From the NCBI RefSeq assembly GCF_003334305.1, contig NZ_QOWS01000049.1: a stretch of 6,386 bases of DNA. One strand, 5' to 3'. The position numbers were made by a program, and so were the translations under genes. Position 1 is the first letter of the stretch. Every line of letters starts with the position of its first letter. Under the pieces are notes generated by a model. That model was given only the letters and a program-made list of their open reading frames with translations, was not told where the DNA came from and made no database searches. Source of the DNA: Escherichia coli. Its GTDB lineage: Bacteria; Pseudomonadota; Gammaproteobacteria; Enterobacterales; Enterobacteriaceae. Below, in pieces: positions 63-6,386 of the stretch.

Positions 63-77
63 GTTGGAGTCATTACC
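1..77 (+). mobile_element. IS1 insertion sequence, right end only (element continues upstream of the window)
   Basis: Nt 1-77 match, from my memory of IS1, the last ~77 bp of the element in canonical orientation (AATCGGTGGAGCTGCATGACAAAGTCATCGGGCATTATCTGAACATAAAACACTATCAATAAGTTGGAGTCATTACC), ending with the right terminal inverted repeat at 55-77. Not verified by search. Confidence 0.85.
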
Positions 78-735
78 GTGCACGGTAACGGGCCATATCA
101 ATGAGCAGTTCCTCTCCAATTTTATTTGCCCCTAGAGAGCGGCGAGTTTTCTTCACTTCAATGACAATCTTCTCTTTCTTCAGAAGAAAATCCTGTCTGG
201 ATGATGAACCTGCGAAGCTAGGTGAATTTTCTTCAGGTCTGACATCATTAAAATGCAGCAGCAGAAGAGCATGAACAAGATCCTGTACATCATACTCGTC
301 ATTAATTTCAAGCGGCGTTCTGTCATTGTATCGTTGCTTTAATTGACGACAAAAAGCTGGAAATTTATTGAGTATATTTATAATCAAATCCAGTTCGGCA
401 TGTTTTGTTGCTATAGTCGATGCCGTGCCGGAGTAAGTTAAATCGTCTCTGGCTGCATCAAAAATAGGTTTGTAATGTCTAACCAATCCCTGATAATTAC
501 TAGACCAAGCAATCCTTTGTGTATCATTAAAATCTTTGTAGTAATCAGATTCCTTTCCATAACTGTCTTCAAGTAACTTTTTTGCTCTTGCAATCCAGTT
601 ATTACCTTTAGCCGAATCAATATATTCCTGGCTTCTGTGACTAAATGCACTTGTTCCCATATATTTTGTCGACATGACAGAATTGTACTCTTGTTCAAGC
701 ACTTCAAATCTTTCAGCTAAGGTCTTCTTCGTCAT
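73..735 (-). CDS. Hypothetical protein with a C-terminal PD-(D/E)xK-like nuclease motif; 3' end created by the IS1 junction, so probably truncated
   Basis: ORF track frame 73..747 (-). Position 747 is a TTG; the first ATG is at 735 (MTKKTLAERFE...), giving about 220 aa. The C-terminal region reads EYDVQDLVHALLLLHF ... SSSRQDFLLKKEKIVIEVKK: an acidic helix, a D in a hydrophobic strand, then E-V-K 11 residues later, the arrangement expected for a PD-(D/E)xK core (motif-level inference only). The last sense codon and the TAA stop (73-75) overlap the IS1 terminus, which ends at 77. Confidence 0.55.
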   Translation of the reverse strand: MTKKTLAERFEVLEQEYNSVMSTKYMGTSAFSHRSQEYIDSAKGNNWIARAKKLLEDSYGKESDYYKDFNDTQRIAWSSNYQGLVRHYKPIFDAARDDLTYSGTASTIATKHAELDLIINILNKFPAFCRQLKQRYNDRTPLEINDEYDVQDLVHALLLLHFNDVRPEENSPSFAGSSSRQDFLLKKEKIVIEVKKTRRSLGANKIGEELLIDMARYRAR

Positions 736-811
736 AGCGCAATCCAAATTATATGCTAATAATACCTGTGAATTTTAATATTCTACCATATCTGGCTTTC
801 TTCCGTTCACA

Positions 812-837
812 TTGGACATTCAGGTAATTTCGTCCAG
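812..837. repeat. Dyad-symmetric motif copy 1 (TTGGACATTCAGGTAATTTCGTCCAG)
   Basis: Inverted repeat TGGAC (813-817) / GTCCA (832-836) around a 14-bp spacer. It is homologous to the copies at 1710, 2259 and 5447. It lies in the divergent promoter region between the 73..735 ORF and the 905..1099 ORF. Confidence 0.6.
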
Positions 838-863
838 TTCTGCTGGCTGTGCTGGAGCTAGCC

Positions 864-872
864 TGGTATAAT
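864..872 (+). promoter_or_regulatory. Candidate sigma70 promoter, extended -10 (TGgTATAAT)
   Basis: TG at 864-865 and consensus TATAAT at 867-872; the -35 region is poor. It sits about 33 nt upstream of the ATG at 905, and GGTGG at 894-898 could serve as the ribosome-binding site. Confidence 0.45.
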
Positions 873-904
873 TTAACCAGCCATTTCAACAGCGGTGGTG
901 TCTT

Positions 905-1099
905 ATGAACGTCAAGAACATGTTTTACGGTGCCATTCTGGTAAGTGCTGTATGGGCGGTTATTTTGCTCTCATGGTTTGAATCCAGCCTTACCTTAAGC
1001 GATTACCTCAGGTACGAATCGGTAATCCTGATCCCATGCCTGCTGTGGGTTGCTGTTTATGGGTTAGGTAAACGTTACCTCCAAAGAACATCAAACTAG
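905..1099 (+). CDS. Small hypothetical membrane protein (64 aa, two predicted TM helices)
   Basis: ORF track frame. It has two hydrophobic stretches (FYGAILVSAVWAVILLSWF and VILIPCLLWVAVYGL) and a basic C-terminus, and is preceded by the extended -10 promoter and a GGTGG Shine-Dalgarno-like sequence. Confidence 0.5.
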   Translation: MNVKNMFYGAILVSAVWAVILLSWFESSLTLSDYLRYESVILIPCLLWVAVYGLGKRYLQRTSN

Positions 1100-1131
1100 C
1101 CGCGCCAGCGACTTTTTTTACACCTTCGTTT

Positions 1132-1164
1132 AATTCCCTGGCTCACCTGGACAGCCAGGGAATT
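1132..1164. terminator. Perfect 12-bp stem / 9-nt loop hairpin between convergent ORFs; possible bidirectional terminator or RNA stability element (no U tract)
   Basis: AATTCCCTGGCT (1132-1143) pairs perfectly with AGCCAGGGAATT (1153-1164). The loop CACCTGGAC carries the CACCTGGACA core seen in the dyad repeats. No clear U run follows on either strand, so the terminator call is weak. Confidence 0.35.
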
Positions 1165-1174
1165 CTGCCCAGCG

Positions 1175-1654
1175 CTACTGGCTTGCTGTGCCAAACTTTC
1201 CGTTGCAGATTTCCTCATTCACAATGGCCTGAAACATGGAAACAGAATTTCTAGCCTTATCCCTCAGTGCATTAATGAGTTCTGTGTCGTGTATTTTGTT
1301 GTAGAAAATGAAAGTAGAAACATCAAACTGGAGTTTAAATGCTGCTTTCCTTATGGCTAAACCTGACGTGATCGTTATCTCATTATGTATGCGAAGATAG
1401 GCAAGATAATCATCGTTATTTGCTTCACACTGCTCATATAAATATTTTTGCATGAGAGATTGAGACAAGGCCAGAAATTCCACATATCGTTTGGTTTTTA
1501 TTTCTTTATCTTTTAATCCCTGTACTGCCGCTTCTTTTTTTAATTCGTGCTTTTGTGTTAGCTTAAGAGTCAGCCACCCCCCTAAAATAGTCAGCAACGA
1601 CCCCAAACCTATTTTTACGGCATTATCAGCCACATCCACCCACTCAGTCGCCAT
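1175..1654 (-). CDS. Hypothetical protein with an N-terminal membrane anchor (159 aa)
   Basis: ORF track frame. It has one N-terminal hydrophobic helix (VKIGLGSLLTILGGWLTLKL) followed by a charged, probably helical soluble region. No family recognised. Confidence 0.5.
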   Translation of the reverse strand: MATEWVDVADNAVKIGLGSLLTILGGWLTLKLTQKHELKKEAAVQGLKDKEIKTKRYVEFLALSQSLMQKYLYEQCEANNDDYLAYLRIHNEITITSGLAIRKAAFKLQFDVSTFIFYNKIHDTELINALRDKARNSVSMFQAIVNEEICNGKFGTASQ

Positions 1655-1692
1655 CTGTTACTCGTTCTTCCTGTGATGATCATGGTTGCCAG

Positions 1693-1698
1693 TATAAT
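1693..1698 (+). promoter_or_regulatory. Candidate -10 hexamer (TATAAT) for the 1772..2221 ORF
   Basis: Consensus TATAAT at 1693-1698 in the 117-bp divergent intergenic region. The -35 is poor. The dyad motif at 1710-1735 would overlap the predicted transcription start. Confidence 0.3.
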
Positions 1699-1709
1699 TC
1701 CAGCACAGA

Positions 1710-1735
1710 CTGGACGTACAGCATTTTCTGTCCAG
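1710..1735. repeat. Dyad-symmetric motif copy 2 (CTGGACGTACAGCATTTTCTGTCCAG)
   Basis: Perfect inverted repeat CTGGAC (1710-1715) / GTCCAG (1730-1735) with a 14-bp spacer. It matches the copy at 5447-5472 at about 22 of 26 positions. It sits just downstream of the candidate -10 for the 1772..2221 ORF. Confidence 0.6.
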
Positions 1736-1771
1736 TAGACAGACTGTTACACTCAGGATAGGATAGCTTCT

Positions 1772-2221
1772 ATGGTTAAATTTCCAGGTGAAGTTATGAG
1801 TTCGTCCGCTGCTGTAACCGTTATAACTGGTGTTCTTGTTTTTGTTGGTGGTCAGCTCATTGTAAAGAGCGCGATTGAACCTTATATAGAATTCAAGAAA
1901 CAATTGGGAAAAATATCAAATCTGCTATTAGCTAACCAAGCTAAATTAGCTAATCCTTGTGCTGTTGAAATGTCTGAGATCATCCATGAGTTGAAAGATG
2001 CCGCAGCTCAGTTAATGTCGAAGCATTCAGCTTTGCCTTTCTATATCAAAAAATTCCATATCGGATTCCGCTTTGTTCCATCAACGCCTGAAATTATTAG
2101 TTCGGCGCAAAAATTGAATTTGATAGCATCAATACATGAAGGTAAAAGCAAGGAAAGTACATATGAGCACATAGCCGAGATTGGACGTATGCTCAAAATC
2201 CCAACCACCTATTCTCTTTAA
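1772..2221 (+). CDS. Hypothetical protein with an N-terminal membrane anchor (149 aa)
   Basis: ORF track frame. It has an N-terminal hydrophobic helix (AAVTVITGVLVFVGGQLIV) and a soluble C-terminal region. An alternative start at the ATG at 1796 is preceded by AGGTGA. It is followed by the bidirectional terminator at 2278-2304. Confidence 0.5.
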   Translation: MVKFPGEVMSSSAAVTVITGVLVFVGGQLIVKSAIEPYIEFKKQLGKISNLLLANQAKLANPCAVEMSEIIHELKDAAAQLMSKHSALPFYIKKFHIGFRFVPSTPEIISSAQKLNLIASIHEGKSKESTYEHIAEIGRMLKIPTTYSL

Positions 2222-2258
2222 TCTTCACGCCGATCAGATTACATAATCCACGCGCCAC

Positions 2259-2284
2259 CTGGACATTCAGGTAAAAAAGTCCAA
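2259..2284. repeat. Dyad-symmetric motif copy 3 (CTGGACATTCAGGTAAAAAAGTCCAA), fused to the terminator stem
   Basis: TGGAC (2260-2264) / GTCCA (2279-2283). The right half-site is also the 5' arm of the terminator hairpin at 2278-2304. Confidence 0.55.
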
Positions 2285-2358
2285 CTGGTGAGGTTGGGCT
2301 TTTTGGCTTTCCGGTTCTGTTGGTGGCTATGACCGGAGAAAATTGCTCTACACCTAAC
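2273..2358 (-). ncRNA. Candidate small RNA, orphan paralog of the antisense RNA at 4727..4814
   Basis: Homologous to 4727-4814 along its length: the same terminator architecture, the same internal hairpin (TCCGGT ... ACCGGA), and a conserved -10 (TAAAAT on the minus strand, plus-strand 2365-2370). The predicted 5' seed is different (GUAGAGCAAUUUUCUCC versus GUAGAGUGACUUCCUCC). No adjacent toxin gene, and no target found in the window. Confidence 0.4.
2278..2304. terminator. Bidirectional rho-independent terminator (A-tract / 8-bp stem / 7-nt loop / T-tract)
   Basis: AGTCCAAC (2278-2285) pairs with GTTGGGCT (2293-2300), with one G-U pair. The loop is TGGTGAG. A5 lies upstream and T5 downstream, so it reads as stem plus U-tract on both strands. 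It serves the 1772..2221 ORF on the plus strand and the sRNA candidate on the minus strand. Confidence 0.6.
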
Positions 2359-2393
2359 GCTTACATTTTATTTACAGCGTTTGATATCTTCCT

Positions 2394-2429
2394 CGCCTTT
2401 AACGCCTTTAACGCCTTTAACGCCTTTAA
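2394..2429. repeat. Perfect tandem repeat, 4 copies of the 9-bp unit CGCCTTTAA
   Basis: Direct reading: the unit CGCCTTTAA occurs at 2394, 2403, 2412 and 2421, followed by G6. It occupies the -35/upstream position of the sRNA candidate promoter at 2365-2370. Confidence 0.9.
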
Positions 2430-2798
2430 GGGGGGAAGATAGAGCAACTCACCGATGATGAATAAAGTGGACGAAGAGACGATAACTACACTCCCATCCA
2501 GGGGGGGGCTTTTTTTGTGGTACTGTAGTGTGGGAGTAAGTTCGGGTCTCATATTGAATGAGGCGATTGCGAGCTGCCTTTCATCGAAAACTAATGTCCA
2601 TTGTCATTGTATTGTCTGACTCTATCTCGTAACAAGTCTTTGACACAAAGTTTTATATTTTTATCAAAGTGGACATGAGGGGAATTAAATTTGTGATCTT
2701 TTTCAAATAATGTGTTCTTGATAGTAGATTCTGGTTAGTGATATCTATTAACAATATATTAAATTTCTTTTGTATTATCGCTGATAAAACTACTGTAT

Positions 2799-2807
2799 TG
2801 GTATACT
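2799..2807 (+). promoter_or_regulatory. Candidate extended -10 promoter (TGgTATACT) for the 500-aa ORF
   Basis: TG at 2799-2800 and TATACT at 2802-2807, inside a very AT-rich ~280-bp upstream region. A second candidate is TTGACA at 2640-2645. The ribosome-binding site AGGAG is at 2825-2829, 8 nt before the ATG at 2838. Confidence 0.4.
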
Positions 2808-2837
2808 ATATATTATTGAGTAACAGGAGATATCACT

Positions 2838-4340
2838 ATGAAGAAATTTTATCAATTTAGGGATGAACAGCGAAAGGAGCTTGAACAACATGATTTTTAT
2901 AGTTTGATTTCTTCAGATTGTATAGCGTTGAAAGACAAACTATTATTTGCTCCTGTTATGGCTCATTTCATAATGAACTTCAGAGACATGAATAAATGGG
3001 TTATCAGGTTTGATAACAATGATAATGAATATAAATCTGTTATAAACGGTGGAACAATCGAGGATGAAACACATTCAAGATTGTTTCTGGAAGACTGGAG
3101 GAAACTATATATAGATGACAAACTTAACTGGAAAGCAAGTGATGTTATATACTGGTTGTTTATTAGTCGAGAAATGGAGTGTTTCCGAAAATTTGGTATT
3201 GATTTTATGAGACTTTGTGTAGATGATGGAGGAGACCCAATACTTCGATATTCTCACTCCGAGTCAGGAGAAACTTGCGGTAATATATTCTTTTCAAGAA
3301 TTAGTCCTATTGCTGATCAAGTTGCCAATCATTTGGGAATATCACTCCGTTATTTTGGAACATTTCACCTTAATCTTGAAAATGGACATGTATGGAAGTC
3401 AGAAGGTGTTTTTGAAAATATAGAGTTGTCACCAGATTCTTATAAGAAAATGGCTACTCTATCAAAGAGAATGTTTGATATATTTGAAGGAATTCATGAC
3501 TCTTTTTATAATTACCTGTCCAGTTATGTTCTTAATGGAAGTCATCCGTCATTTTTTGAATCATTACCTGTAGGGAAAAATGTTGCACCTATATACCCTG
3601 AATTTGTGATAGAAAACAAAAGCCATAACGATGGTAGACATATTGAACATATAAACAATTACCTGGAAAAAATATCGAGTCATGAGTTCTTTAAATGGCT
3701 GGTTAACACCTCAATAGACCCTCAATTGAAATTGAAAAGTTTCATACCTCTTTGGATTGTTGATATTATGGGGTATAGAGATATTAATAAATATGTTTTT
3801 ACATATGAACAGCCTGAATCAGAAAGTGAAAAGATTATAAATGATTATGCATTACACTTGTCAGAGCATAGCCGTTTATTTTATCATGACTGGAAGTCAC
3901 TTCAACTTGATGATATGTTACGTTGGAGTGCCAGTGATACTCTTGAGTTTATTTTTCTTAATTCAGATATGGATATGCATAGAGAAAATATAGTTAAGTT
4001 TTCTTTGTTCGGATTAAAACACAGAGATCCTGTTATCAGGTTCTGGTTTATGATGATACTGGAGTTAAGTGGAAAAGAATTTTTCTCTCATGTTGGAGAT
4101 ATAGCTTTACAGGTGGAAAGTAAATATAATATTTATCTCCCATATTTATGTGGACGCCATGCAACAGAAAATGAGCATGAAGCATATAATAATATGTATG
4201 AGCATTTTATGGTAAAGGAACTTAGCCCTGAACAAAGTGATCTAATAATACAAATTACAGACATGGTTATGCGGTCATTATTGAATAATTTGGATATCTC
4301 ATATCGATATGTAGTAAATAATTTATTGGCAGCTCGTTAG
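2838..4340 (+). CDS. Hypothetical 500-aa protein made of two homologous ~220-aa halves; function unknown
   Basis: Long ORF with a strong AGGAG Shine-Dalgarno site, its own AT-rich promoter region and its own terminator. The two halves share ETHSRLFLEDWRKLYIDDKLNWKASD versus EHSRLFYHDWKSLQLDDMLRWSASD, FRDMNKWV versus YRDINKYV, and a later ELSP motif. No signal peptide or TM helix is apparent. Codon usage is strongly AT-biased compared with the flanking sequence. Confidence 0.8.
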   Translation: MKKFYQFRDEQRKELEQHDFYSLISSDCIALKDKLLFAPVMAHFIMNFRDMNKWVIRFDNNDNEYKSVINGGTIEDETHSRLFLEDWRKLYIDDKLNWKASDVIYWLFISREMECFRKFGIDFMRLCVDDGGDPILRYSHSESGETCGNIFFSRISPIADQVANHLGISLRYFGTFHLNLENGHVWKSEGVFENIELSPDSYKKMATLSKRMFDIFEGIHDSFYNYLSSYVLNGSHPSFFESLPVGKNVAPIYPEFVIENKSHNDGRHIEHINNYLEKISSHEFFKWLVNTSIDPQLKLKSFIPLWIVDIMGYRDINKYVFTYEQPESESEKIINDYALHLSEHSRLFYHDWKSLQLDDMLRWSASDTLEFIFLNSDMDMHRENIVKFSLFGLKHRDPVIRFWFMMILELSGKEFFSHVGDIALQVESKYNIYLPYLCGRHATENEHEAYNNMYEHFMVKELSPEQSDLIIQITDMVMRSLLNNLDISYRYVVNNLLAAR

Positions 4341-4374
4341 AAGAACAGCATTGGTATGACTCTGATGCTCCTTA

Positions 4375-4404
4375 AAATCCCACTTTTCAGAGTGGGATTT
4401 GTTT
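4375..4404 (+). terminator. Rho-independent terminator of the 500-aa ORF
   Basis: Perfect 10-bp stem AAATCCCACT (4375-4384) / AGTGGGATTT (4391-4400), loop TTTCAG, followed by GTTTAAT. It lies 35 nt after the TAG stop at 4338-4340. Confidence 0.65.
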
Positions 4405-4504
4405 AATGCCCAGAACAGGGGGAATTTCCATTCATGCCCAAAAAATATTTTGATGTCCTCTCGCCAATTCTCGCGCTCAGTCCTTCCTGAAAAACCTCAG
4501 AATT

Positions 4505-4645
4505 CACGTAGCGCATCGCCGCTACTGCATCCATCAAAAAAAATGACAGCTTTTTTAATCATCTTGTGTTACTCAACTTACTGAAAAATGTGATTTATGA
4601 AAATGCCGCCGTCGGCATCAAGCAGTTGGCCAGCGCAACCGGCTG
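4505..4645. repeat. Repeat block U, copy A (about 140-bp core; homologous to 5765-5905)
   Basis: Shared anchors, by eye about 75% identity: TTCACGTAGCG, TACTG-ATCCATCAA, AATGAC, CTACTGAAAAAT, GGC-ACAGCATC. The reading frames are not conserved between the two copies, so it is probably non-coding. Confidence 0.55.
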
Positions 4646-4726
4646 CATCGACCGCAACAAAAAAACTGAAAGAGAAAGCCCCTCAAATGAGGGAGAAAAA
4701 AAGGAAGTGCAGTCAACGAGAGGCGT

Positions 4727-4814
4727 AAAAAACCCGACTGGTGAGGTCGGGTTTTAATACGGTTCCGGTTCTGAGTTGGTGGCTCTGACCGGAGGAAGTC
4801 ACTCTACACCTAAC
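4727..4814 (-). ncRNA. Candidate antisense small RNA (type I antitoxin-like), divergent from the 31-aa peptide gene
   Basis: Minus-strand promoter: TTGCAA (4844-4849), 17-bp spacer, TAAAAT (plus-strand 4821-4826). The predicted start is near 4814. The terminator is stem CCCGAC (4733-4738) / GTCGGG (4746-4751) with loop TGGTGAG and a U6 run on the minus strand. The first 24 nt (complement of 4791-4814) pair with plus-strand 5026-5049 in the peptide mRNA leader (23 Watson-Crick pairs plus one G-U). Confidence 0.5.
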
Positions 4815-4820
4815 GTTTAC

Positions 4821-4849
4821 ATTTTATGCACTCAGCCGCAGTATTGCAA
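4821..4849 (-). promoter_or_regulatory. Candidate sigma70 promoter of the antisense RNA (-35 TTGCAA, -10 TAAAAT, 17-bp spacer)
   Basis: Read on the minus strand: TTGCAA, then TACTGCGGCTGAGTGCA, then TAAAAT. Confidence 0.45.
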
Positions 4850-4903
4850 CTAACTGTGGTTAAGGCACCACATTTAGTTGTGTATCGTGGGTTTTATATA
4901 CCT

Positions 4904-4909
4904 TATAAT
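4904..4909 (+). promoter_or_regulatory. Candidate -10 (TATAAT) for the peptide mRNA, implying a leader of about 210 nt
   Basis: Consensus TATAAT at 4904-4909 with an AT-rich upstream region; the -35 is poor. It is divergent from the antisense RNA promoter, about 55 bp away. Confidence 0.3.
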
Positions 4910-5025
4910 CATGAAGTTAGCCGTGTGGTGTGGCTTCTTCCTCTGCCCTTCCCGTTTATGCAGGTATGAACGATTTTAAAGTCCTGGCTGAACAAACAGG
5001 TGGTGCTGTGTTTAGTGCTCTGGCA

Positions 5026-5049
5026 GGAGGAAGTCACTCTGCACCTAAC
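5026..5049 (+). promoter_or_regulatory. Predicted antisense RNA target site in the peptide mRNA leader
   Basis: GGAGGAAGTCACTCTGCACCTAAC (5026-5049) differs at one position (A to G) from plus-strand 4791-4814, so it is complementary to the 5' end of the minus-strand RNA with one G-U wobble. Confidence 0.5.
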
Positions 5050-5102
5050 AATGCGAGAGAACCGTTGTGACAGGCAGTGTAAGAGCAAGCAACGGTGATT
5101 TC

Positions 5103-5119
5103 CTCCAGTTTTACTGGAG
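5103..5119 (+). promoter_or_regulatory. Hairpin sequestering the Shine-Dalgarno sequence of the peptide gene
   Basis: CTCCAG (5103-5108), loop TTTTA, CTGGAG (5114-5119). The SD GGAG (5116-5119) is inside the 3' arm. TTCCTCC at 5100-5106 could alternatively pair with GGAGGAA at 5026-5032. Confidence 0.4.
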
Positions 5120-5125
5120 AAACGG

Positions 5126-5221
5126 ATGATTAATCTGTTAATCATCGTTCTCAGGGCTGTGGTCGCCGTTGCAAACGCGCTGATTGCAATTCTGGAACTG
5201 ATTCGCCAGTTCATCGACTGA
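5126..5221 (+). CDS. 31-aa hydrophobic peptide, type I toxin-like (MINLLIIVLRAVVAVANALIAILELIRQFID)
   Basis: ATG at 5126 with GGAG 6 nt upstream. An in-frame stop lies upstream at 5096-5098, so this is the first possible start. The peptide has one predicted TM helix and a charged C-terminus. A near-identical paralog is at 6044..6139. It is not in the ORF track, which lists only the antisense frame 4909..5214. Confidence 0.6.
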   Translation: MINLLIIVLRAVVAVANALIAILELIRQFID

Positions 5222-5446
5222 TGACAGCGGAAACGTAACTAAGGACAGGAAGTGAACCGCTTCCTGCCCTTTAACATACTGTGATATTTTTCAAAAAAAC
5301 TCACCAATATTCTCCTCGGCAGAAATGACATAACTCACTGTAAAATAACAAATCATCTAAACGCCAGCTTTGTATTGAGCGCGTTGGCCAACGCCTTTAT
5401 CAGCTGCGACCGCACCAGATAATTTGAATAAGATTTCCCGCATCAC

Positions 5447-5472
5447 CTGGACATACAGGTTATTCTGTCCAT
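5447..5472. repeat. Dyad-symmetric motif copy 4 (CTGGACATACAGGTTATTCTGTCCAT)
   Basis: TGGACA (5449-5454) / TGTCCA (5466-5471), with an inner dyad ACCTG ... CAGGT. It lies in the spacer between the two peptide units. Confidence 0.6.
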
Positions 5473-5764
5473 ACCTCATTAGTTACAACATTCACGCGTT
5501 CTGTTCCTTTATCCGGTGCCCTGTTCCAGTATATGTGCCCATATCCTGGGTTATTCAGGATAACCGCTTCCTTTTCGCCCTGTCCTGTCGTTCATATCCC
5601 CCTGGACAAAAATGCATTATCGGAAAAAATGTCCAAAATTTTTTTGGTGATCGGAATTTTTGTTGTCGGACGCACCTCTTCTTCAGGTCATAATTGCTGA
5701 CACATCCCAAAAAACAGGAGCGGAGATTTAAAAATTGAGTCACTTACCCGCCAAAATTTTCCAG

Positions 5765-5905
5765 ATTTCACGTAGCGTACCGTCGATACTGTATCCATCA
5801 ACAAATGACTATTTTTTGAATGTGTCATTTCCTGTAACCTACTGAAAAATATCAGTGAATGACAATATCGGCGACAGCATCGGAGCTGATAGCCAGTTTC
5901 CTGAA
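5765..5905. repeat. Repeat block U, copy B (homologous to 4505-4645)
   Basis: Same anchors as copy A. It is preceded by a candidate -10 (CATAAT, 5689-5694) and followed by the hairpin at 5994-6032. Confidence 0.55.
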
Positions 5906-6032: not shown

Positions 6033-6043
6033 AAGAGAAACGA

Positions 6044-6139
6044 ATGATTAACCTGTTAATCATCATTCTCAGGGATGTGGTCGCCGTTGCAAACGCGCGG
6101 ATTGCAGTTCTGGAACTGATTCGCCAGTTCATCGTTTGA
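6044..6139 (+). CDS. Second copy of the 31-aa peptide (MINLLIIILRDVVAVANARIAVLELIRQFIV), possibly degenerate
   Basis: ATG at 6044 with a weaker ribosome-binding site (AAGAG). It differs from copy 1 at 7 nt (V8I, A11D, L19R, I22V, D31V, one synonymous), and two of these put charged residues in the hydrophobic core. It lacks the sRNA, promoter and leader block present upstream of copy 1. Confidence 0.45.
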   Translation: MINLLIIILRDVVAVANARIAVLELIRQFIV

Positions 6140-6309
6140 TGACAGCGGAAACGTAACTCAGGACAGGAAGTTCCAAATAGCTCCCAGCCAGCATATGTAA
6201 TTTTCAAAGGGGCAGTTGTTAACTCTGTAATAACGCCATGTAAAGTATTCCTGCCCCCTCCATGATCCTCCATAGTATTTCTTGAGTTAATTTTCAAAAA
6301 GCTTCTGAT

Positions 6310-6386
6310 GGTGATGCTGCCAACTTACTGATTTAGTGTATGATGGTGTTTTTGAGGTGCTCCAGTGGCTTCTGTTTCTATCAGCT
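6310..6386 (+). mobile_element. IS1 insertion sequence, left end (element continues beyond the window)
   Basis: GGTGATGCTGCCAACTTACTGATTTAGTGTATGATGGTGTTTTTGAGGTGCTCCAGTGGCTTCTGTTTCTATCAGCT matches the IS1 left inverted repeat and the insA 5' region as I recall them. It is in the same orientation as the IS1 fragment at 1-77. Confidence 0.9.
6365..6386 (+). CDS. insA: IS1 InsA, N-terminal fragment (GTG start; continues beyond the window)
   Basis: GTG GCT TCT GTT TCT ATC AGC translates to (M)ASVSIS, the InsA N-terminus as I recall it. Confidence 0.7.

Follow-up and report, generated by a model that had tools for sequence, protein, structure and literature searches.

The DNA analysed here (the window) is a stretch of 6,386 nucleotides from Escherichia coli (RefSeq assembly GCF_003334305.1, contig NZ_QOWS01000049.1), a segment of a ColV/IncF virulence plasmid flanked by two IS1 copies. 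Three small open reading frames (ORFs) in its left part, referred to as orf64, orf159 and orf141, are accompanied by a 24-bp dyad, the N12 site, which is present in five copies (by the looser pattern), all on the + strand. In the original prediction these ORFs were taken for a cluster of small membrane-anchored proteins sharing dyad sites; all three were present at the positions given there, with the start of the third corrected to 1796. The comparisons described below make it likely that they are three separate mobile cassettes in a relic integron-like array, each bounded by direct N12 recombination sites.

The 1.5-kb stretch with all three ORFs is present at 100% identity in many large ColV/IncF-type virulence plasmids of E. 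coli, e.g. pECOS88 (NC_011747.1), and 474 of its 479 matching places were on plasmids. In pECOS88 it is located between two IS1 copies, with sitABCD on one side and sopAB and the leading region on the other. The RefSeq annotation consists of a truncated PD-(D/E)XK nuclease pseudogene, hypothetical proteins of 159, 141 and 500 aa, and two dqlB (DinQ-like) type I toxins; orf64 has no RefSeq annotation. Genes and sites follow one another in the order nuclease, site 1, orf64, site 2, orf159, site 3, orf141, site 4, an AgrB-like RNA with the 500-aa gene and dqlB, and site 5. The relic array spans 73–5780, and its principal features are listed here, with all five N12 sites located by repeat and pattern search and BLAST breakpoints (q) given as positions in the 1.5-kb query.

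813–836, + strand: N12 site 1, TGGACATTCAGGTAATTTCGTCCA; breakpoints q33/34.
863–871, + strand: extended −10 element TGgTATAAT, promoter of the orf64 cassette, read from the sequence.
905–1099, + strand: orf64, a 64-aa protein with two hydrophobic helices, in a single-gene cassette of about 837–1147.
1098–1120, + strand: hairpin followed by T7, probable orf64 terminator (hairpin called on the − strand only, T run on the + strand).
1148–1171, + strand: N12 site 2, TGGACAGCCAGGGAATTCTGCCCA; breakpoints q354–393.
1175–1654, − strand: orf159, a conserved 159-aa helical protein (ORF, homologues, model), in a cassette inverted relative to the array direction and always − relative to the sites.
1711–1734, + strand: N12 site 3, TGGACGTACAGCATTTTCTGTCCA, a CAGC variant; breakpoints q954–957.
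1736–1764, + strand: promoter-like TAGACA-17-TAGGAT, for orf141 (promoter search; the flank travels with orf141 in loci L027, L029 and L045).
1796–2221, + strand: orf141, 141 aa, N-terminal hydrophobic helix and helical bundle (the earlier 149-aa ORF with corrected start; RefSeq start, family alignment, model).
2260–2283, + strand: N12 site 4, TGGACATTCAGGTAAAAAAGTCCA, with its right half overlapping the AgrB-like terminator; its halves were seen separately as two hybrid junctions in L052.
5448–5471, + strand: N12 site 5, terminal and platform-proximal; its right flank 'cattagttacaacat' matches the site upstream of the IncX recombinase.
5603–5635, + strand: second dyad, TGGACA-N21-TGTCCA (N21), the single polar end element of the array (pattern comparison across loci).
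5735–5778, + strand: remnant of a tyrosine recombinase gene, about 14 codons (alignment with the IncX locus, translation compared).

The N12 site has the form TGGACR-nn-CAGGT-n-ATTC-TGTCCA. By the strict count, the window contained four matches to CCTGGACANNCAGGTAA within three mismatches against 0.12 expected by chance, so the shared dyads noted earlier are real and non-random. The logo of 59 distinct copies was T-G-G-A-C-R-n-w-C-A-G-G-T-n-A-T-T-C-T-G-T-C-C-A with high information at almost every one of the 24 positions; the 12 asymmetric bp at the centre were conserved as much as the half-sites, and a weaker AATTCC motif was present 9–14 bp to the left. The dyad had been described as a feature of the start region of the divergent pair orf159 and orf141. 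That description was too narrow: dyads stand at both ends of every gene, 3′ ends included, in one orientation, and they mark breakpoints of modular exchange. Among the genomes of 100,044 species the strict pattern gave 22 hits, of which 13 were in Enterobacterales and the remaining nine fell within the approximately 17 matches estimated by chance. It was rare in viral contigs (four stretches) and absent from the rest of pECOS88, including the leading and tra regions. A leading-region single-strand promoter (Frpo-like) was rejected for lack of sites in the pECOS88 leading or tra region. As possible leads, none of the LexA box, sigma-54, CRP/FNR, MlrA-type box, lux box, MqsA palindrome, P2 Ogr site (TGT-N12-ACA), Xer/dif, Hin/Gin hix and Tn3 res half-site fitted the N12 consensus in both sequence and spacing. 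No description of the N12 site or of the cassette arrays was found in the open-access literature, exact site strings included, although an earlier description elsewhere is possible.

The distribution of the three genes was analysed in PLSDB (72,556 plasmids), where orf64 was found in 258 plasmids, members of the orf159 family in 659 and those of the orf141 family in 345. With the 1.5-kb stretch as blastn query, 1335 plasmids had some part of it and 197 had at least 80%. All three ORFs are together in these 197 plasmids, which are nearly all at least 99% identical and, judged by that identity, probably one lineage. Partial matches began and ended at the sites: match H46 covered q33–393 (orf64 alone), H39–42 covered q354/369/383–955 (orf159 alone) and H38 covered q915–1493 (orf141 alone). 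Across the 59 distinct sites, one left flank was joined to various right flanks, and vice versa. Diverged orf159 relatives stand alone on Erwinia and Serratia chromosomes and on IncFII, Klebsiella and Enterobacter plasmids; orf141 relatives stand alone beside a helix-turn-helix gene in phage-plasmid-like contigs, where no N12 site was found; and in the IncX4 plasmid L028 orf64 is the sole cassette. Metagenomes were scanned with the N21 pattern, giving 52 loci with 27 distinct layouts. In these 52 arrays each cassette type kept a fixed orientation relative to the sites (orf159 −, orf141 +, nuclease −, AbiD +), while order and company varied; genes were on either strand and sites always direct. 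Cassette order also differs among L052, L090 and the window.

A single co-functioning accessory or defence system, with the dyads as its shared regulatory elements, would account for the adjacency of the three genes in 197 plasmids. Consistent with it, an IncX4 plasmid (81% nucleotide identity) and Pantoea (56–58% amino-acid identity) likewise have orf159 and orf141 side by side and divergent, and both proteins were modelled as an N-terminal helix with a helical bundle. However, each of the genes is found in many contexts that lack the other two, the order in L090 is reversed, with orf141 lying upstream of an orf159 homologue and separated from it, the two proteins are unrelated in sequence (hhalign probability 0.35%), and orf64 is narrowly distributed with nearly all copies at least 95% identical. 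We regard a single system as very improbable. The proposed three-gene cluster is not supported: among the PLSDB plasmids the joint block was found in only 197, and diverged homologues are single, reordered or outside the system.

Empty and occupied sites were compared in IncX4-type plasmids, in which the cassettes are located between the hns/topB backbone and a gene for a 271-aa tyrosine recombinase, followed by a ParA-type ATPase gene. (This IncX ParA-type partition ATPase, L027 6785–7444, is misnamed 'peptidyl-arginine deiminase'; NCBIfam ParA_partition, 1.2e-24.) Ten places with an identical recombinase protein fell into two classes: one had a single site (L053, L054, L057, L058, L060 and L061), and in the other this site was divided by an array of 7809 bp:

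Empty plasmid, single site: aattcgccaggcagtTAGACATTCAGGTCATTCTGTCCAtacctcattag
Occupied plasmid, first site: …ggcagtTAGACATTCAGGTCAAAAAGTCCAactggtgagg
Occupied plasmid, last site: aatccacgcgccaccTGGACATTCAGGTCATTCTGTCCAtacctcattag

Where the array is present, the left portion of the empty site runs on into a cassette-specific right part, and at the other end a cassette-specific left part leads into the right portion of the empty site. Only the 13-nt GACATTCAGGTCA is common to the empty, attL-like and attR-like sites. The cassette-specific halves at the occupied junctions are the two halves of window site 4, and at the polymorphic position 14 both hybrid sites had C. Read from these alignments, the split site set against the empty one is the signature of site-specific insertion with exchange in the central region.

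Such junctions are left unexplained if the repeats act as nucleic acid, i.e. as hairpin terminators, processing sites or single-strand DNA signals, and not as protein-bound recombination sites. Elements acting as RNA or single-strand DNA would be expected to keep one strand orientation, a bidirectional terminator adjoins site 4, and site 2 is located within a perfect 10-bp-stem hairpin (1134–1162, TTCCCTGGCT…AGCCAGGGAA) between the convergent orf64 and orf159, a structure absent at the other sites. Yet the dyads themselves would form weak stems, of 5 bp or of 6 bp around a 12-nt loop; where one half-site departs from the consensus, the other showed no compensating change (59 sites, by inspection); and sites 1 and 3 are upstream of predicted promoters and so would not be transcribed from them. 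This explanation is the least probable of those considered, with hardly any weight.

The arrays are strictly polar. The N21 dyad was found about 155 bp past the terminal N12 in the IncX type and about 93 bp past it in other types; its inner consensus is ttcGGCACTATCGGAAAAAg, and about 60 conserved bp come after it. A histogram of half-site spacings gave 61 for N12, 17 for N21 and 3 or fewer for every other spacing. All 69 N12 sites in the 27 metagenomic layouts were upstream of N21, 67 of them co-oriented with it, 2 undetermined and 0 reversed. Successive N12 sites were 137–3206 bp apart (median 606). Some 'cassettes' were only 137–360 bp long with no obvious ORF (L016 5326–5942; metagenome arrays) and may be empty, or hold an RNA or promoter only.

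This polarity also bears on the possibility that the dyads are operators of one transcription factor and the cassettes its regulon (like the CUP-controlled regulon of IncN leading regions), shuffled by homologous recombination between the repeats. Between the end of site 1 and the orf64 −10 element there are about 30 bp, and site and promoter are kept as a 62-bp unit, 88.7% conserved in Klebsiella plasmids from site to −10 (BLAST); the likely promoter of orf159 has a −35 region overlapped by site 3, which lies 57–58 bp from the ATG in several genera; and the outer hexamers are perfectly dyad-symmetric, as the binding site of a dimeric protein would be. Against operators stand sites 2 and 4, which are found at 3′ ends and between converging genes, an orientation that tracks the array and not the gene, the equally strong conservation of the inner asymmetric 12 bp, and the lack of any regulator gene common to the arrays. 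A host regulon was rejected on the distribution of the strict pattern, with no Klebsiella, Salmonella or E. coli representative among the 13 Enterobacterales species genomes. Operators would account neither for the strict polarity to N21 nor for the split-site junctions, and on balance we consider them unlikely.

The region after N21 was inspected for a recombinase that could act on the sites. A recombinase gene was present within 1 kb in 32 of the 46 loci with enough downstream sequence, and two unrelated classes were represented:

IncX-type tyrosine recombinase, co-oriented, at about +100: 17 loci, and a further copy, 68% identical, at +176.
48%-identical tyrosine recombinase, convergent, at +78 or +219: 5 loci.
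Serine recombinases of two lineages, co-oriented, at +129 to +369: 7 loci, and in addition plasmids of Klebsiella and Izhakiella.
Serine recombinases, convergent, at about +800 to +990: 3 loci.
Rpn-family nuclease only: 2 loci.
Nothing detected: 10 loci, each with at least 700 bp downstream.

In different plasmid families a homologous platform (N12, N21 and about 60 bp) comes before genes of two unrelated recombinase classes, tyrosine and serine (window 5603–5635, L016, L040, L023, L033 and L037). A DNA-binding domain common to the tyrosine and serine recombinases was looked for and none was found. In non-IncX types a gene for an Rpn-family (YhgA-like) recombination-promoting nuclease often follows the platform, usually just 3′ of the serine recombinase gene (L023 4496–5437, L016 3002–3952, L072, L076, L089, L104 and L111).

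The full-length IncX recombinase has an HTFRH box at 203, GH at 228 and a conserved C-terminal tyrosine, with GARLNE and EIYTRV recognized by eye, and matched XerC, XerD and IntI4 structures (phmmer: XerC-like 4a8e, 1.9e-9; IntI4 2a3v, 1.7e-8); in catalytic residues and predicted fold it is a tyrosine recombinase. Against integron integrase models it scored 54.7 bits with TIGR02249 (cut-off 265) and 39.3 with PRK15417 (cut-off 435), the matches being largely to the C-terminal catalytic region. A complete IncX4 plasmid encodes no second recombinase. A 39%-identical recombinase is encoded by an Edwardsiella IncX-like plasmid that has no N12 site, and the nearest relative in pECOS88 (41% identical) is beside RepFIB with no N12 site nearby. 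The enzyme that would recombine the sites belongs, with slightly better than even probability, to the adjacent ResD/Xer-like tyrosine recombinase family, which is favoured because of its long-standing association, with diverged tyrosine recombinases in five lineages. A serine recombinase is distinctly less probable, although identical half-sites at two spacings would suit a serine resolvase, and the remaining probability falls to something else.

In the window itself, 5448–5778 aligned with the terminal site, N21, the recombinase upstream region and the first ~14 recombinase codons, and homology stopped at a 16-mer repeated at 4498. The point of gene loss is marked by a 44-nt repeat (4498–4541 and 5762–5805) with CAGATTTCACGTAGCG. 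This repeat also contains a LexA-box-like TACTGTATCCATCAACAA. Because its recombinase gene is cut to about 14 codons, the window array is a fossil and probably frozen unless an enzyme acts in trans.

If these elements work together as proposed, the cassettes would be self-contained, with their own promoter (orf64, orf141) or one overlapping the site (orf159), and with terminator-like hairpins at least for orf64 and orf141. They would enter and leave as circles through site-specific recombination in the central part of N12, with the recombinase cutting in the CAGGT region. Arrays would grow on one side of a fixed platform, formed by the terminal N12, 70–160 bp and then TGGACA-N21-TGTCCA, beside the resolvase-type recombinase gene of the plasmid.

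Several observations weigh against mobile cassettes moved by a dedicated enzyme. Recombination was read from comparative junctions only, and rare homologous recombination between identical repeats of 24–39 bp could yield the same products. The enzyme is ambiguous: recombinase genes of both unrelated classes, in either orientation, come after the homologous platform, and several chromosomal arrays had no recombinase in the available DNA. The L027 junction is outside the core, homology to the window starting 17 bp to its left. Finally, the arrangement orf159–site–orf141 recurs in Pantoea at the protein identities given above. This could reflect a functional link or, equally, a poorly recombining CAGC-type site. 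A CAGC-variant site was located 57–58 bp upstream of most orf159 homologues examined, the centre at such sites being usually CAGC, not CAGG (window 1711–1734; L006, L016 and L020). A CAGC site may be a poor recombination partner, which could explain the lasting adjacency of orf159 and orf141 in E. coli and Pantoea.

The products of the three genes were then considered singly. In orf64, hydrophobic segments were found at residues 3–29 and 37–55 (Kyte–Doolittle), and the near-consensus extended −10 sequence reported for it is present. In the L028 copy the probable terminator is GCCGC-GTCA-GCGGC followed by a T run (hairpin by eye). Compared with the IncX4 copy, there were 3 changes in the 195 nt of the ORF, 2 of them synonymous, versus 17 changes in 93 nt upstream. 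Nearly all copies in the 258 plasmids were at least 95% identical (tblastn, PLSDB), and a homologue in the Edwardsiella IncX-like plasmid (36% identity) had the same hydrophobic pattern and an (S/N)xSLSD(Y/F)xxYESV motif. On this pattern of substitution and conservation we take orf64 to be a real, unannotated, conserved small two-helix membrane protein.

Homologues of orf159 were found across the Enterobacterales (Klebsiella, Citrobacter, Enterobacter, Serratia, Erwinia, Hafnia, Yersinia and others), down to 43% identity. The third ORF almost certainly starts at 1796 (141 aa) rather than at 1772, because the family alignment and phrog_7512 begin at MSSSA, RefSeq uses 1796, and AGGTGA is present 7 nt upstream. 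The match to phrog_7512 was full-length (E 3.8e-60; residues 9–148 of the 149-aa form against profile positions 1–140 of 141), and this family carries no assigned function. The three proteins had been said to have no recognizable domain, and this stood: no Pfam or NCBIfam domain was found in orf159 or orf141 (zero Pfam matches for orf159 even at E ≤ 10; for orf141 an insignificant CENP-B_N, E 0.69), and PADLOC defence models gave nothing significant for any of the three, the best being orf141 against a CARF model (E 0.022). The database name 'peptidase M14' for orf159 was rejected as an annotation error, given an all-helical bundle model and no Peptidase_M14 domain in Pfam or NCBIfam.

AlphaFold models of orf159 and orf141 (pLDDT 82 and 79, respectively) both consisted of a long N-terminal helix and a helical bundle. 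Their fold matches in the AlphaFold DB were almost all uncharacterized proteins, a few of them labelled DUF4760; the orf159 model matched such proteins at E 1.5e-8, TM-score 0.84 and 37% identity, the orf141 model weakly, at E about 0.1–0.2. The likeness to the small DUF4760 (PF15956) proteins, a family with no assigned function, is in fold only, as the DUF4760 Pfam profile matched neither sequence. PDB sequence and fold searches with orf159 and orf141 gave no significant match, only generic four-helix bundles. The two were rejected as paralogues (BLASTP E 0.17, together with the hhalign result above). As for the transmembrane helices predicted in each protein, orf64 has two hydrophobic segments, whereas the N-terminal hydrophobic stretch of orf159 is borderline (maximum Kyte–Doolittle 1.54 against a cut-off of 1.6). 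All three proteins are small, helical and probably membrane-anchored.

The remaining features of the window are as follows.

1–77: end of an IS1 copy, cutting the array on the left, with its terminal inverted repeat at 55–77 (RefSeq IS1A transposase coding sequence ending at window 62; arms 55–77 and 6310–6332 form an inverted repeat).
79–747, − strand: PD-(D/E)XK nuclease gene fragment, the leftmost, truncated cassette, its C-terminus removed by IS1 (RefSeq pseudogene; PADLOC Aga_Helical-REase, 4e-23).
2271–2357, − strand: AgrB-like antisense RNA, first part of a cassette with the 500-aa gene (2838–4340) and dqlB (5126–5221) (Rfam RF02891, 46 bits).
6310–6386: end of the second IS1 copy (RefSeq; inverted repeat with 55–77).

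Full-length homologues of the nuclease have N12 sites on both flanks in Serratia (L032), and one adjoins a site in Pantoea (L046). A second AgrB-like antisense RNA was located at 4725–4813 on the − strand, and the Rfam scan of the window returned AgrB-like RNAs alone and no other family. The block of AgrB-like RNA, 500-aa gene and dqlB is also present in L029 and L052. On IncX3 plasmids agrB-dqlB has been shown to be a plasmid-stabilizing toxin–antitoxin (PMC12317039). No dqlB toxin ORF is annotated directly beside the AgrB-like RNA at 2271–2357, which may be an orphan antitoxin or a degenerate toxin–antitoxin copy heading the 500-aa cassette. Just downstream of this RNA gene a tandem repeat (2388–2430) consists of about four copies of the 9-mer CGCCTTTAA. 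The hypothetical protein of 500 aa, whose gene is low in GC, is internally duplicated: its halves are 32% identical over 173 aa (E 3e-25) and both carry an HSRLFxxDW…W(K/S)ASD motif. NCBIfam, PADLOC and PHROGs gave no family for it. The dqlB toxin region occurs twice, at 93% identity (5117–5253 and 6035–6171).

The cassettes of other arrays carried AbiD (3e-59), PDC-S15/FRG (2e-36), an HNH-endonuclease-like protein (1e-22), full-length PD-(D/E)XK nuclease (2e-28) and dqlB/agrB, which bears out the accessory or defence-type neighbourhood proposed for the window. The three proteins are independent cargo and, by association with the other cassettes, putative membrane-anchored exclusion, abortive-infection-type or competition factors, an assignment that we offer as speculative. 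More generally, N12 and N21 may define an undescribed integron-like capture system of Enterobacterales plasmids (IncX, ColV relics, Klebsiella NDM) and some chromosomes, in which self-expressed cassettes (defence, toxin–antitoxin, small membrane protein) are exchanged and a conserved platform works with, or is repeatedly re-coupled to, tyrosine and serine recombinases; we hold this wider proposal tentatively, at somewhat less than an even chance. If it is true, direct N12 sites closed by one N21 would be a sequence rule delimiting mobile cassettes, the recurrence of hypothetical, abortive-infection, nuclease and dqlB/agrB blocks in varied order on unrelated replicons would be explained, and dozens of unannotated small ORFs such as orf64 would become defined, singly testable units. 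The backbones concerned are of clinical weight (IncX-type plasmids, an NDM-4-carrying Klebsiella plasmid and ColV virulence plasmids), and the question is raised of how one conserved platform comes to adjoin unrelated tyrosine and serine recombinases.

Among known systems, multimer-resolution loci (F ResD/rfsF, Salmonella pSDL2 Rsd/crs, Tn3-type res) likewise have a small recombinase gene beside partition genes with the presumed site just upstream, and the gene after the platform is named 'resolvase' by some submitters. The identical half-sites at two spacings (12 and 21) are reminiscent of res subsites. The arrays described here differ in that one platform precedes both tyrosine and serine recombinase genes, and we know of no resolution sites that build up cassette arrays.

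The Acinetobacter pdif modules are also accessory modules (resistance, toxin–antitoxin and others) bounded by a short recombination site and shuffled among plasmids, and in both the site probably derives from a multimer-resolution function. Xer sites consist of a XerC arm, a 6–8-bp spacer and a XerD arm (…TTATGTTAAAT), and pdif sites (28 bp, XerC-6-XerD) occur in alternating orientation and rely on the host Xer. N12 sites bear no resemblance to dif or cer (by inspection), are all direct, and are associated with a polar platform and a plasmid-borne recombinase gene.

With integrons the arrays have in common the polar order of short, mostly one-gene direct cassettes (median 606 bp) beside a platform and a recombinase gene, single-cassette exchange between replicons, cargo rich in defence and toxin–antitoxin genes, and empty platforms. 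The anchoring of direct cassettes at one primary site was found here too, with none of the 69 N12 sites upstream of N21 reversed. An attC site is defined by its R″/L″–L′/R′ structure and GTTRRRY core. In contrast to the structured attC of variable sequence, N12 is a near-invariant 24-bp duplex-type dyad without a GTTRRRY core (59-site consensus); the adjacent recombinase is far below the IntI model cut-offs, its gene is downstream of the array and varies in class, and the cassettes carry their own promoters and point either way. The logic of the system thus matches that of integrons and pdif modules, while its site, recombinase and architecture depart from the defining features of both.

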